Virus record (IMG/VR): IMGVR_UViG_2778261639_000017
DNA: 4,524 bases
From: a virus
Taxonomy: Duplodnaviria > Heunggongvirae > Uroviricota > Caudoviricetes
Reading direction: 5' to 3' (one strand)
In this document: piece after piece, positions 111 to 4,524 of the stretch
Layout of the letters: each line of letters opens with the position of its first letter
How positions within the stretch are numbered: position 1 is the stretch's first letter
Position numbers and translations under genes: made by a program
Notes under the pieces: model-generated
What the model was told of the DNA's origin: nothing
Seen by the model: the letters and a program-made list of their open reading frames with translations, nothing else
Databases searched by the model: none

Positions 111-311
111 TCAGGCAGCCTTGTTGTTCTGTTTGTCAAGTTCTCTGGCAATTATTGCCGTCGTTCGTATTGCCCATTTATCGACATATTTCCTATCTTC
201 CATTACAGGAAACATTTCTTCAGGCTTAACCATGCATTCCGATTGCAGCTTGCATCCATTACATCGCTTGAATTGTCCACGCCATTGATTTTTATCAATA
301 GTCGTAGTCAT
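111..311 (-). CDS. ral: Ral-like restriction-alleviation protein (66 aa)
   Basis: ORF of 66 codons with an ATG start at 309-311 (minus strand) and an AGGA Shine-Dalgarno about 8 nt upstream. Size, a Cys-containing RCNGCK...C motif, and position distal to N and sieB in the leftward early operon fit lambda Ral. The sequence also resembles lambda Ral as I recall it (recall not verified). Confidence 0.6.
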   Translation of the reverse strand: MTTTIDKNQWRGQFKRCNGCKLQSECMVKPEEMFPVMEDRKYVDKWAIRTTAIIARELDKQNNKAA

Positions 312-524: not shown

Positions 525-1106
525 ATGAACAACTCATGGTGGCAGGAACTAATGCATTTTTTCCTGCAAGGAATGACACTTAAACAGTTGATTCATATGC
601 TAATCATCCTGATCATATTGATTATTGTTATGCCGGTAAGCGTAAAAGAATGGATAAACCTGCATAATCCAGAAATCCTTCCTCATTACTGGATGTATTA
701 CATCCTGTTGTTTTGCGTTAGCTATGTGCTTAACGGCGTTGTTAATTCCGCTTATCACGCTGTGACTGAAAGAATTGAGGTATCCGCTGCTCAGAAGCGC
801 AAATCTAAAGAAGAAAAATATGTGCAAGATTTGTTTGATTCATTAACTCTTGGAGAAAGAGCGTATTTGGCATTCGCTGTAGCCGCTAATAACCAGCTAC
901 AAACGGAAAAGGGAGCTCATGAATCAATTTCATTGCTCAAAAAAGGACTCCTCGTTCGAAGGCCTCCTGCTGTTGGATATCCTGATACCGACCGTTTCGT
1001 TATCCCTGAAAGCTATAGACATGAGTGCTACATTAGGTTTGCCGGGAAGGCAGACAGCCTTATGGATGAACTTATCGCTCAGGATAAGCATGGCAAAAAC
1101 AAGTAA
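525..1106 (+). CDS. sieB: SieB-like superinfection-exclusion protein, predicted inner-membrane protein (193 aa; alternative start ATG 552 giving 184 aa)
   Basis: Long + strand ORF ending in TAA at 1104-1106. The N-terminal part has two strongly hydrophobic stretches (LIHMLIILIILIIVMPV and YWMYYILLFCVSYVLNGVV) typical of SieB. It lies between ral and N and converges on N, as sieB does in lambda. ATG 552 has the better Shine-Dalgarno (CAGGAA, 4-nt spacer). Confidence 0.6.
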   Translation: MNNSWWQELMHFFLQGMTLKQLIHMLIILIILIIVMPVSVKEWINLHNPEILPHYWMYYILLFCVSYVLNGVVNSAYHAVTERIEVSAAQKRKSKEEKYVQDLFDSLTLGERAYLAFAVAANNQLQTEKGAHESISLLKKGLLVRRPPAVGYPDTDRFVIPESYRHECYIRFAGKADSLMDELIAQDKHGKNK

Positions 1107-1122
1107 TTAGCAAATGAATTTA

Positions 1123-1395
1123 TCATCTCGCCGTCAGTTGTTTTGATTTCCGGTAGCCTGCCGCGTAAAGAGCTACGTTCGGAAGACAAGTTGAACCTTC
1201 ATATTTTCTGGTCAACGTTGTCAGAGTTATCACTTCTGCTCTCATTGCTGGTTTGCGCTTGCATTGCAAGACCACTCGTGAAGGGGTTGGCCTGTGTAGC
1301 TTGTCGGAGCTGATCGCCTCCTGACTTTGCAGATTTGCGCGACGAGCTCTACGGCGAGAAGCTGCGGTGCCTTTAAATTCTGTTTTTCTGGACAT
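1123..1395 (-). CDS. N: Antitermination protein N (90 aa) with an arginine-rich motif and a P22 gene-24-like C-terminus
   Basis: ATG at 1393-1395 is preceded by a strong Shine-Dalgarno (GGGAGGAA, 5-nt spacer). The N-terminal region carries an arginine-rich motif (GTAASRRRARRANLQ). The C-terminal residues ...LPNVALYAAGYRKSKQLTAR closely resemble the P22 N-like protein as I recall it. The 24-codon upstream extension in the ORF track (to 1467) is rejected because it lacks a ribosome-binding site. Confidence 0.75.
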   Translation of the reverse strand: MSRKTEFKGTAASRRRARRANLQSQEAISSDKLHRPTPSRVVLQCKRKPAMRAEVITLTTLTRKYEGSTCLPNVALYAAGYRKSKQLTAR

Positions 1396-1493
1396 GGATT
1401 CCTCCCGAATAAACTTTGGCGATGCAATCTCGAAGCTCCTCCTGAGACGGTTGCTTCGGCATTGCATCCCACAGCTTATGTGGTTGGGTGATC

Positions 1494-1797: not shown

Positions 1798-1828
1798 GGC
1801 AAAGAAAACCCGGCGCTGAGGCCGGGTT
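1798..1828 (-). terminator. Intrinsic terminator of the cI-cassette operon: 8-bp GC-rich stem (AACCCGGC / GCCGGGTT), 6-nt loop, then TTTTCTTT on the minus strand
   Basis: Seen directly. The hairpin at 1807-1828 begins 3 nt after the stop of the 250-aa gene (stop at 1832-1834) and is followed on the minus strand by a T-rich tract (+ 1798-1806). Confidence 0.65.
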
Positions 1829-1831
1829 GTA

Positions 1832-2584
1832 TTATGCTGCAAGTCTCTTAATCCAAGTCTCTCTTTTGGAGAATGGTAGAACTTGGCTTGATTCATGGAA
1901 GAGTAAGGAGAGTTGTTGCATTTGATCACCAATTGCTTCGCTGTCTATAACAACAAATCTGTTGTTATACTCCTCACTTGAAGCTTTAAGATCAATTAGT
2001 TTCCCAAGCAATGAGTAAGCACTATTCCAGCTTCCTCCGTGTTTCACGCTTGATGTAAAAACGTATTTAGGTATGTCGGTTTTTATTGTTACAGGGACGG
2101 TAATTTGATGTCCACTCAAGCCATATACGTTTTCACGAAGAGAAAGTGCGTCTCTAAGCTCTGTGTGATATAGATAATCAATAACCATACTTTCAAACTT
2201 TTCAGCTTGAACTGGCTGATACCAGTCTAACGACAAAGTTGATGCGAGTATACCAGCTCTAATTATGTTCGATGTAATCGCACCGACATCCTTTTCTGTT
2301 GCCCAAGCAATGATTTCTCCTCGAGCATTGAGTTCTGCGCCTTCTTTAAGCAGTAATTGTCGTATCTCATCAAGTCGTTTTTTGGTAAGCGAGATCCCTC
2401 TTGCCTCCATATTCATTAAGGCATCGCATCTGTCACTAACTAAATACCTACCATTGACTTCACGGATAAAGGCACCGACATGCTCTCCATCATCACAGTA
2501 AGTGAATGGACTGATAATTCTCAAGGTCTTGCCTATTGGATGGCATTCGAAACCTAGTTGTGAGATCACTGTTGAGCACATCAT
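1832..2584 (-). CDS. Hypothetical protein, 250 aa, distal gene of the two-gene cassette in the rexAB-equivalent slot; function unknown
   Basis: Long minus-strand ORF. Its ATG (2584..2582) overlaps the TGA stop of the upstream gene in an ATGA arrangement, indicating translational coupling. No transmembrane-like segment, P-loop or other motif I can recognise. Not RexB-like (RexB is a small multi-pass membrane protein). Confidence 0.8.
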   Translation of the reverse strand: MMCSTVISQLGFECHPIGKTLRIISPFTYCDDGEHVGAFIREVNGRYLVSDRCDALMNMEARGISLTKKRLDEIRQLLLKEGAELNARGEIIAWATEKDVGAITSNIIRAGILASTLSLDWYQPVQAEKFESMVIDYLYHTELRDALSLRENVYGLSGHQITVPVTIKTDIPKYVFTSSVKHGGSWNSAYSLLGKLIDLKASSEEYNNRFVVIDSEAIGDQMQQLSLLFHESSQVLPFSKRETWIKRLAA

Positions 2585-3138
2585 ATTCCAAACCCCATTT
2601 GCCCCGACTCATCTTCAAGCGGTAAAGGTACTCTCCCAGAGTAAGTTATGTTCAGATGTTTACAGAAGTAATTCCAATACCCTACCAGGTCATCTGGGTT
2701 TATGTCATCTTCGATTGGAAACGCTATTCTATCACTATAGTATCCAGCTTCTTCATAGTATACATGGTAGTGAGCACCGTAAATGATATCTTGGTACTTC
2801 GGATGATCGACCTTGTAACTATTCGTGTGTTTGTCAAAGTGATAGGTATCTACCGCGAAAACCCTCTTGTTATGATAGAAAGCAATAATATTTATTTTAG
2901 GGTAAGAAATCGGGTCATCAGGTTCTGAATCCTGATCTGGTTTCCATTTCAGTTCAAACTTTAGCCCTTGTATAGGTATACAATCCTCATCCAAGGGGAT
3001 GATATGAGCTTGTAGCCACATATCAGAGCGACTTGGTTTCTGTTTCCATTTAACGCCAGAAAAGTTAACTATTTTTTTACAATAAAGTACTTTATCAACT
3101 TCTACTTGGCTTGGCTGATAATCATCTATTTTTGCCAA
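2581..3138 (-). CDS. Hypothetical protein, 185 aa, proximal gene of the two-gene cassette immediately downstream of cI; function unknown
   Basis: Minus-strand ORF bounded by an in-frame TAA two codons upstream. The only start consistent with full length is TTG at 3138..3136, with AGGGCGG about 6 nt upstream; the next in-frame ATG is at codon 40. The product is acidic and aromatic-rich (many D, E, Y, H) with no hydrophobic segments. It starts 39 bp after the cI stop. Confidence 0.7.
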   Translation of the reverse strand: MAKIDDYQPSQVEVDKVLYCKKIVNFSGVKWKQKPSRSDMWLQAHIIPLDEDCIPIQGLKFELKWKPDQDSEPDDPISYPKINIIAFYHNKRVFAVDTYHFDKHTNSYKVDHPKYQDIIYGAHYHVYYEEAGYYSDRIAFPIEDDINPDDLVGYWNYFCKHLNITYSGRVPLPLEDESGQMGFGI

Positions 3139-3177
3139 TGTTTACCGCCCTGTAAATTGTAGATAAAAGTGGTTTCA

Positions 3178-3831
3178 TCACCCAAACGTCTCTTCAGGCC
3201 ATTGGCTGGCGATAACTTTCCCCACAACGGAACAACTCTCATTGCATGGGATCATTGGGTATTGTGGGTTTAGTGGCTGTAGAAACACCTGACCGCTATC
3301 CCTGATCAGTTTCTTGAAGGTAAATTCATCACCACCAAGTCTGGCTATGCAGAAATCGCCGGGCTCAACAGCTTGCTCAGGGTCAACCAGAATTAACATC
3401 CCGTCAGGAAAGCTGGGTTTGGAACCTGTTGGTGCGGTCATTGAGTTACCTTCAACCTCAAGCCAGAATGCAGAGTCACTGGCTTTTTTGGTTGTGCTTA
3501 CCAATCTCTCCGCATCGCCTTTGGTAAAGGTTCTGAGTTCTGGAGAGAACATCCCAGCCTGAACATGAGAAAAAACAGGGTACTCATATTGTTTTTTAAC
3601 TGGGGCCGATGAGTATTCGCCAACAGGTGAAAATGTCCCGTCGTGGTTGAATGATATGTTATCAATACCAAGGTATTTAAACACCACACCAATATCACTA
3701 AGAGATGGATGACGAGATCCGCGCAACCAGTGTCCAATCCCACCCTGCGTCATACCTAGCTCTTCGGCTAACTTCTCTTGAGTTATGCCGAGCTCTTTCA
3801 TTCTGGATCTAGCCAGTTCATACCATTTCAT
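3178..3831 (-). CDS. cI: CI-type prophage repressor: XRE-family HTH N-terminal domain plus lambda-CI-type S24/LexA-like autocleavage C-terminal domain
   Basis: The C-terminal ~135 residues ([16 protein letters not shown]...SQWPEETFG) match lambda CI as I recall it at all but one position, including the Ala-Gly cleavage site (VQAGMF), the catalytic Ser (GNSMTAP) and Lys (FKKLIRD). The N-terminal domain ([38 protein letters not shown]...) is an unrelated HTH. Start chosen at ATG 3829-3831, which has AAGGA 7 nt upstream. Alternative starts are ATG 3835-3837 and ATG 3871-3873 (which would be leaderless-like, as in lambda PRM); TTG at 3879 is the track's limit. Confidence 0.9.
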
Positions 3832-3873
3832 TTTCATGTCCTTATTATTACGCTTTGTACTGGAACCATCCAT

Positions 3874-3946
3874 GCACAATGTGTATTTTTACTTGTATTC
3901 TTAAAGTACATATTGTATTTTTATTCGTGTTTACTATGGAGGGCAT
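3874..3946. promoter_or_regulatory. Divergent cI/cro control region (OR with PRM and PR). Candidate PR: -35 TTGTAT 3893-3898, -10 TATTTT 3916-3921, operator 12-mer TAAAGTACATAT 3902-3913 in the spacer. cro Shine-Dalgarno GGAGGG at 3938-3943
   Basis: Seen directly: an AT-rich intergenic region between the divergent repressor and cro genes, with recurring TGTA/TACA inverted motifs (for example the 17-mer TGTATTCTTAAAGTACA at 3894-3910, half-sites matching 6 of 8). The 12-mer is shared with the pL region in the same promoter-relative position. Confidence 0.6.
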
Positions 3947-4162
3947 ATGAGCAACCTACGAAAATATCGAGAGTCACTGAATATCTCTCAAACAACACTT
4001 GCTAAGGCAGTTGGATGCACACAGGGAGCTATCGGACATTGGGAATCTGGTCGTCGCTTCCCAGACCTTAAAACATGCCGTGCTCTTGTTGCATGCCTAA
4101 ACAAGTTAGGCGCAAAAGTCAGTCTTGATGACGTGTTCCCGCCGGAACATAAAGCCGCTTAA
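3947..4162 (+). CDS. cro: Cro-like HTH regulator (71 aa)
   Basis: ATG at 3947 is preceded by a strong Shine-Dalgarno (GGAGGG). The product has an XRE-type helix-turn-helix (ISQTTLAKAVGCTQGAIGHWESG). It is divergent from cI across the operator region. Stop TAA at 4160-4162. Confidence 0.85.
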   Translation: MSNLRKYRESLNISQTTLAKAVGCTQGAIGHWESGRRFPDLKTCRALVACLNKLGAKVSLDDVFPPEHKAA

Positions 4163-4172
4163 TAAGCGGATC

Positions 4173-4218
4173 CGCTCTTTGTAACAACGGACATTCGTCC
4201 TACGTCGCTGAAAAGCGA
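4173..4218 (+). promoter_or_regulatory. nutR: nutR: boxA (CGCTCTTTGTAACAAC, 4173-4188), spacer hairpin (GGAC-ATTC-GTCC, 4189-4200), boxB-like hairpin (TCGCT-GAAA-AGCGA, 4205-4218)
   Basis: Position-for-position parallel to nutL on the opposite strand (boxA, small hairpin, TACGT, then a 5-bp stem with GAAA loop). The boxB stems differ by base-pair-preserving changes (GGCU/AGCC versus CGCU/AGCG). Located just downstream of cro, as in lambdoid phages. Confidence 0.6.
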
Positions 4219-4303
4219 GTTCCAAGATATCTGACCAACTAAGGCCATATGCGTTTCCACGCATACCTTTCAACTAACTATTCACTATTGGAAATCTTAA
4301 GAA

Positions 4304-4450
4304 ATGGAAAGAACAAGTTACAGCAAACTATCACAGCGTGACGTTGATCGCGCAGAAACAGATTTACTTATCAATCTGTCAGCTATTACCCAGCGCGGTC
4401 TGGCAAAGATGATTGGCTGTCATGAATCGAAGATAAGCAGAACGGACTGA
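4304..4450 (+). CDS. cII: CII-like HTH activator, apparently truncated (48 aa) by an in-frame TGA
   Basis: Hand translation gives MERTSYSKLSQRDVDRAETDLLINLSAITQRGLAKMIGCHESKISRTD then stop. The HTH segment aligns with lambda CII (...LLNKIAMLGTEKTAEAVGVDKSQISRWKRDW...) as I recall it. Lambda CII is 97 aa. The frame stays open beyond the TGA to the window edge. Confidence 0.4.
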   Translation: MERTSYSKLSQRDVDRAETDLLINLSAITQRGLAKMIGCHESKISRTD

Positions 4451-4524
4451 ACCGCCCCGGGTTTCCTGGAGAGTGTTTTATCTGTGAACTCAGGCTGCCA
4501 GATCATCGTTTCCGATGGAAGCAT

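Follow-up and report, generated by a model that had tools for sequence, protein, structure and literature searches.

A lambda-type self-cleavage module joined to a VT2-Sakai/Nil2-type DNA-binding domain in the CI protein encoded by a lambdoid immunity region

The stretch of DNA analyzed here, called the window throughout (4524 bases), is in its whole length a lambdoid prophage immunity region, in which cI and cro diverge from each other with operator repeats between them and a second set of operators lies beside N. It comprises ral (111–311, minus strand), sieB (525–1106, plus strand), N (1123–1467, minus strand), the OL operator cluster (1586–1660), a terminator-like hairpin that closes the cI operon (1807–1828, minus strand), a gene for a 250-aa DUF1828 protein (1832–2584, minus strand), a gene for a 185-aa protein that overlaps it (2581–3138, minus strand), cI itself (3178–3831, minus strand, 217 aa, with the stop codon at 3178–3180), the OR operator cluster (3846–3920), cro (3947–4162, plus strand, 71 aa) and the first 48 codons of cII (4304–4450, plus strand). 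The 185-aa and 250-aa genes were delineated from the list of open reading frames and Pfam, as was cI (domains HTH_3 and Peptidase_S24), and cro was assigned to the HTH_3 type by Pfam. Homology to lambda is confined to three islands, namely 77–504 (ral, 96% identity), 1707–1828 and 3177–3588; the second of these (122 nt) is 90% identical to lambda 35708–35826, i.e. to the terminator region after rexB, and contains the hairpin at 1807–1828. Homology to phage VT2-Sakai covers 1123–1829 and 3180–4449. A scan of the window for the sigma-70 consensus returned, at its threshold, no candidate for pR, pL or pRM.

Positions 4448–4524 of the window are the end of IS1203, an IS3-family element (IS629-like) with thousands of copies in E. 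coli genomes and plasmids. The assignment of these last 77 bases to a replication gene, based on one genome match, was ruled out, as they represent the IS1203 end. The element interrupts the 97-codon cII behind codon 48, at position 4448, and consequently the establishment of lysogeny should be impaired in the prophage from which the window derives. At the left end, positions 1–107 show a 92.7% match to a sequence annotated as an IS481-family transposase, and similarity to lambda and other prophages begins only at position 77. The immunity region seems to have an insertion sequence on either side.

The product of cI falls into two parts. Residues 1–81 (3589–3831, minus strand) constitute a DNA-binding domain of a non-lambda type together with the first part of the linker, and residues 82–217 with the stop codon (3178–3588, minus strand) constitute a lambda-type module, which includes the cleavage-site region and the C-terminal S24 domain. 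Pfam identifies HTH_3 at residues 9–56 (E-value 1.9e-10, which passes the curated cut-off) and Peptidase_S24 (PF00717) at residues 85–207 (E-value 1.1e-28). On the minus strand, the codons of Ala92-Gly93 (3553–3558) correspond to the self-cleavage site Ala111-Gly112 of lambda CI, that of Ser130 (3442–3444) to the nucleophile Ser149, and that of Lys173 (3313–3315) to the general base Lys192. With the C-terminal module as query, a database search yielded 373 relatives, from which 113 cluster representatives were analyzed, and Ala92, Gly93, Ser130 and Lys173 are each invariant in 113/113 of them. The Ala-Gly dipeptide lies within the linker, as in lambda, in the context VQAGMF; this type of site is the established point of self-cleavage in lambda CI and in LexA. 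CI of the window therefore has the make-up of a self-cleaving repressor of the S24 type, with an HTH_3 domain, a Ser/Lys dyad and an Ala-Gly site in the linker. Solved LexA chains match residues 121–208 (E-value ~2e-6), and LexA shares with CI the self-cleaving S24 domain with its Ser/Lys dyad and the Ala-Gly site, but its N-terminal domain is of the winged-helix kind and its role is to regulate the host SOS response rather than to act as a phage immunity repressor.

The start codon of cI is ATG at 3831, with an AAGGA box at 3839–3843 and a spacer of 7 nt, and this start is the one kept among homologues (MKWYEL or MNWYDI). A second ATG is found at 3837, two codons upstream. Longer reading frames from TTG at 3879 and from ATG at 3873 were considered and rejected. 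The PGAP annotation gives the latter, a 231-aa CI starting from ATG at 3873 (5602–6297 of locus L005), which we find unlikely to be correct, because the start would fall within OR2, OR3 would be placed inside the coding region, and the homologues conserve the start at 3831 with MKWYEL; the shorter form is more likely.

The resemblance of the C-terminal module to lambda CI is close to complete. With the lambda sequence fetched as reference (NC_001416), BLASTP aligned residues 82–217 to lambda residues 102–237 with 135/136 identities (E-value 9e-112), which rules out a chance match; the sole amino-acid mismatch is ERL versus ERW of lambda, exactly the one position that the sequence-only reading had excepted. 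At the DNA level, alignment without gaps from a C-terminal anchor revealed 384 identical bases out of 411 (93%) in 3178–3588, and 26 of the 27 differences are synonymous, the single non-synonymous one being TTG versus TGG. The corresponding estimates are dS 0.37, dN 0.003 and dN/dS 0.008. The latter ratio represents an unusually strong conservation of the amino-acid sequence; relatives of the module in other genera differ by approximately 15%. Calculated in 30-nt windows, the identity to lambda is 83–97% up to position ~3597 and 13–33% thereafter. The homology breaks within one codon at 3588/3589, between Gln81 and Tyr82, and the nucleotide alignment thus puts the breakpoint in the linker just before YEYPVF, where it had been expected from inspection of the sequence; its opposite limit in cI is the stop codon. 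Solved lambda CI chains that match the module include 3BDN, 8GMU, 2HNF, 1KCA and 1F39, and residues 1–136 of the 136-residue chain 8GMU align exactly to residues 82–217 of the window's CI. From the identity of 135/136 residues to lambda CI residues 102–237 we infer that the cleavage of CI would be stimulated by RecA.

The N-terminal part differs. Residues 1–81 are only ~19% identical to the N-terminal domain of lambda CI. They are identical over 81/81 positions to the counterparts in Nil2, the Stx1 converting phage, PA phages and others, and their next-best relatives, at ~51% identity, are found in the Salmonella phages SPN9CC, g341c and epsilon34. The first ~16 residues of lambda CI, within which the lambda N-terminal arm falls, have no counterpart in the window's protein. 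The sequence-only reading regarded both the helix-turn-helix domain and the operators as unrelated to those of lambda. The operators do differ from those of lambda (see below), but the domain matches the structure of the lambda N-terminal domain (1LLI, E-value 4.5e-4) and is a distant homologue with the same HTH_3 fold.

Six operators of VT2-Sa are given in Table S1 of PMC10742460, where they were taken from Fattah et al. 2000, and the operator sites of the window were located by mapping these published sequences onto it. At the right-hand cluster, OR3 (TATTACGCTTTGTACTG, 3846–3862) differs at one base from its published VT2-Sa counterpart, while OR2 (ATGCACAATGTGTATTT, 3872–3888) and OR1 (AAGTACATATTGTATTT, 3904–3920) correspond exactly to their VT2-Sa namesakes. 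At the left-hand cluster, OL1 (TAGTACGATATGTACTT, 1586–1602) is exactly VT2-Sa OL1, and OL2 (CAATACAATTTGTTGTA, 1611–1627) and OL3 (TATAACGCTTTGTATTT, 1644–1660) each contain one mismatch. The consensus of the six predicted 17-bp operators is nAnTACnnTTTGTAnTT, and its core TACNNNNTGTA has 5 matches in the window compared with 0.46 expected; repeat finding carried out on the OR and OL regions recovered only fragments of the operators. No lambda operator (of the TATCACCGCCAGTGGTA type) was found in the window within 3 mismatches. The centre-to-centre distances also differ from those in lambda: at OL they measure 25 and 33 bp in the window versus 24 and 20 bp in lambda (NC_001416), and at OR 26 and 32 bp versus 23 and 24 bp. 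As a result of this spacing, pairwise cooperativity of the lambda kind is not guaranteed, and the details of cooperativity may differ from lambda despite a cooperativity domain that is 99% identical.

Cro of the window is an HTH_3 protein (Pfam E-value 4.2e-12), unlike Cro of lambda, and is identical to VT2-Sakai Cro over 71/71 residues. It is also 35% identical to the N-terminal domain of CI (E-value 1e-12), and the two proteins have a common recognition-helix motif, TQG(G/A)IGHW, which fits with both of them reading the same sites. This similarity suggests that Cro is a paralogue-type helix-turn-helix protein that should recognize the operators of CI.

Taken as a group, these features place the window outside the lambda immunity group (imm lambda), given an N-terminal domain with ~19% identity to lambda's and the lack of lambda operators. 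We assign it by sequence to the VT2-Sakai/Nil2 immunity type, because the DNA-binding domain is that of Nil2, Cro is that of VT2-Sakai, and all six operators map with 0–1 mismatch. VT2-Sakai (also called Sp5) and the window share Cro, the operators to within one base, and a Leu at the position of lambda residue 129. Lambda and the window have in common 135/136 residues of the module, including the Ala-Gly site and the equivalents of Ser149 and Lys192, and they differ in the N-terminal domain, in the operators and their spacing, and in Trp129 versus Leu.

We consider it very probable that cI encodes the maintenance repressor of a prophage of the VT2-Sakai/Nil2 immunity type, and that the protein is composed of two modules brought together by recombination in the linker. 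In such a repressor the helix-turn-helix domain within residues 1–81 would read the 17-bp sites, three at OR and three at OL, and the C-terminal domain, by virtue of its identity with lambda CI, would dimerize the protein and mediate its cooperative binding. By analogy to lambda, the bound repressor would silence the early promoters that lead rightward to cro and leftward to N, until activated RecA stimulates self-cleavage between Ala92 and Gly93 by Ser130 and Lys173. The cut would part the DNA-binding domain from the dimerization domain and thereby lead to prophage induction. What the sequences show directly is the anatomy of the gene, its breakpoints, the operator matches and the intermixing of N-terminal classes on the C-terminal tree (see below); that the protein binds DNA cooperatively, responds to RecA by cleavage and confers a specific immunity is predicted from them. 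If so, the window presents a textbook case of how a new immunity specificity arises by swapping the DNA-binding domain on a module that provides dimerization, cooperativity and the response to RecA.

The only residue of the module that departs from lambda, Leu110 (codon TTG at 3502–3504, minus strand), corresponds to Trp130 of lambda CI, or Trp129 in the numbering of the mature protein (codon TGG). Among the 113 representatives, which belong to four N-terminal classes (see below), Trp is found at this position in 112 and Leu only in the window's protein. A scan of IMG/VR (loci L006–L125) identified at least 120 contigs with the lambda-type C-terminal stretch of cI. In the matches listed, genes with the window-type N-terminal domain have Leu in at least 44 cases (to which at least 2 truncated genes can be added) and Trp in at least 5, and the lambda-type genes have Trp in 69/69 and Leu in none; among these listed matches Leu therefore occurs almost only with the N-terminal type of the window. 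[quoted passage not shown] A literature search on Trp129 of the lambda repressor found nothing relevant.

A lineage-specific Leu at an otherwise invariant Trp may deserve attention in a repressor that controls the induction of Shiga-toxin prophages. The replacement may be adaptive: in a repressor carried by a major group of Stx2 phages, it may retune the self-cleavage stimulated by RecA, or the way in which the cleavage-site region docks; we regard this speculation as rather improbable, but if it were true, the threshold of induction would be shifted, and with it the release of the toxin. A different possibility is that the replacement alters the response to RecA to such a degree that CI is non-inducible, or else unusually easily cleaved. 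The near-invariance of Trp over all four N-terminal classes, the association of Leu with one N-terminal type among the IMG/VR matches listed, and the location of the residue past the cleavage site and ahead of the folded C-terminal domain would be in keeping with such an effect, which nevertheless appears unlikely in view of the same Leu in VT2-Sakai and of the identical C-terminal domains in Stx2a_F349 and PA30. VT2-Sakai (Sp5) is induced by mitomycin C, and an inducible phage that carries the same Leu argues against a non-inducible CI.

Another explanation to be weighed is that cI survives in a dead prophage as a decaying relic that has lost its action as a repressor. This could be suspected from the truncation of cII by IS1203 at 4448, from the IS481-family-like sequence at the left end of the window, and from the finding that none of the complete E. 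coli genomes in the collection searched contains the whole window as one contiguous piece. We find it very unlikely, since the open reading frame is intact, the DNA of cI is 100% identical to cI of the phages ev207, ev017, PhiR57_1 and PhiR63_2, neither the operators nor cro nor the terminator is damaged, and the catalytic residues are all there. Moreover, a resident repressor in a prophage remnant goes on conferring immunity and silencing genes and for this reason is commonly retained, which further weakens the case for a relic.

The modular origin of the repressor, on the other hand, is borne out by the comparison of the family. Among the 113 representatives the lambda-type module, at 60–100% identity, is joined to four classes of N-terminal domains: the HTH_19 type (44 representatives), the type of the window (40), the lambda type (26) and a fourth type (3). 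In the neighbour-joining tree of the C-terminal module, calculated for all 113 sequences, these N-terminal classes are thoroughly intermixed, and for 42/113 sequences the nearest C-terminal neighbour belongs to another N-terminal class, in some cases at 99–100% identity. The module of the window is itself 99% identical to that of lambda versus 77–86% to modules that carry its own class of N-terminal domain in other hosts. In 8/8 further pairs, which combine near-identical C-terminal modules with N-terminal domains of different classes, the position of the junction is identical, with the similarity beginning directly before (Y/F)EYP(V/L)FS.VQAG. The proposal made from the sequence alone, that the protein is a recombinational mosaic, is thereby supported by three patterns: the sharp break at synonymous sites, the intermixing of four classes on the C-terminal tree and the common junction in all eight pairs. 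The retention of the cleavage site and of the Ser/Lys dyad is a fourth point in its favour.

A difference in protein constraint alone is insufficient to account for this, because the synonymous sites break sharply as well and the DNA outside the module cannot be aligned. That the two halves have always been together, with the N-terminal one diverging fast for the sake of specificity and the C-terminal one frozen, would be compatible with the very strong C-terminal constraint (dN/dS 0.008) and with the distant homology of the N-terminal domain to lambda's, but it is extremely improbable, as the DNA identity switches from 93% to 13–33% (in 30-nt windows) across 3588/3589 with synonymous sites included, the C-terminal domain is closer to lambda than to its own N-terminal class, and the N- and C-terminal phylogenies are incongruent, with C-terminal pairs of 99–100% identity in different classes. 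Recombination in the linker thus remains our preferred explanation. The value of dS (0.37) speaks against lambda itself as the partner in a recent, direct exchange; the module of the window and that of lambda are not recent copies of each other, and both come from a shared pool. Since the junction has the same position in different pairs, the exchanged unit consists of the cleavage-site region and the S24 domain, and its limits are those of the 136-residue lambda CI chain 8GMU. These data support the view that the lambda-type module is a portable unit, which in prophages of Enterobacteriaceae has been combined with at least four N-terminal classes and is joined to them at one point (8/8 pairs).

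Both the repressor and its mosaic type are already known. That the C-terminal half of CI is lambda-like was remarked on when Stx phages of the VT2-Sakai/Nil2 type were sequenced. Besides the four phages with 100% identical DNA mentioned above, cI is 98.6–98.9% identical at the DNA level in Nil2, the Stx1 converting phage, Stx2 II, 1717, 2851, YYZ-2008, the PA series and others, and the records of Stx phages, VT2-Sakai among them, therefore already contain this gene at 98.6–100% identity. The same architecture was described in 2008 for the repressor of phage epsilon34 (PMC2629481): its C-terminal protease domain was reported to be ~80% identical to those of lambda and HK97, and its DNA-binding portion only ~50% identical to those of phages L, VT2-Sa and Nil2, from which the authors inferred a lambda-like inactivation by RecA combined with a different operator specificity, and proposed the operator WTACRAWWTGTAT. 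According to our comparison, epsilon34 gp46 and the c2 repressors of phages L and ST64T belong to the N-terminal class of the window, at ~50–56% identity, and the operator predicted for epsilon34 is similar to those of the window; since only about half of the residues agree between the N-terminal domains, the specificity of epsilon34, L and ST64T is predicted to be unlike that of the window. The C-terminal domain of ST64T is P22-like and 46% identical to the window's. As a discovery the repressor of the window therefore carries little weight, being the well-known CI of the VT2-Sakai/Nil2-type Stx phages.

In the VT2-Sakai record (AP000363) cI is labelled "similar to CI repressor of bacteriophage lambda". 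The gene in this record (3501–4154 of locus L002) contains an in-frame stop at codon 29, within the helix-turn-helix region, and for this reason only a C-terminal coding sequence of 169 aa is annotated there. Either a sequencing error or a genuine nonsense allele could account for this stop.

Chimeric repressors with the DNA-binding domain of 434 or P22 on the C-terminal domain of lambda CI have reportedly been constructed in the Hochschild laboratory. They are analogous to the protein of the window in that a foreign helix-turn-helix domain is placed on the lambda module for dimerization, cooperativity and cleavage, with the difference that the combination was engineered there and is natural and widespread here.

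The lambda-type module also borders on a highly variable region: at its one end one junction is reused over four N-terminal classes, and at the other it flanks a cargo slot. As in lambda, cI of the window has OR on one side and, downstream, a slot whose far end is a homologous terminator region. The limits of the segment 1830–3179 coincide exactly with the cI stop codon and the terminator region, two elements conserved in lambda and in VT2-Sakai, and we regard this segment as a cargo slot because homology to VT2-Sakai stops at 1829 and resumes at 3180. It is occupied by rexA-rexB in lambda, by orf22 in VT2-Sakai and Nil2 and by the 185-aa and 250-aa pair in the window; the cargo is one feature that separates the window from VT2-Sakai and Nil2, the other being the interruption of cII by IS1203. 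The 185-aa gene corresponds to phrog_2017 and the 250-aa DUF1828 gene to phrog_1960, neither of which has an assigned function, and a literature search on DUF1828 found nothing useful. PADLOC gave weak to moderate matches of the pair to PDC-M24A (5e-4) and PDC-M24B (6e-10), which makes the two genes candidate defence genes. In the IMG/VR matches listed (at least 120 contigs), the first 900 nt after the cI stop codon fall into at least about 29 unrelated clusters, with rexAB found there in at least about 9 contigs, and the position 3' of the cI stop codon is a highly variable cargo site.
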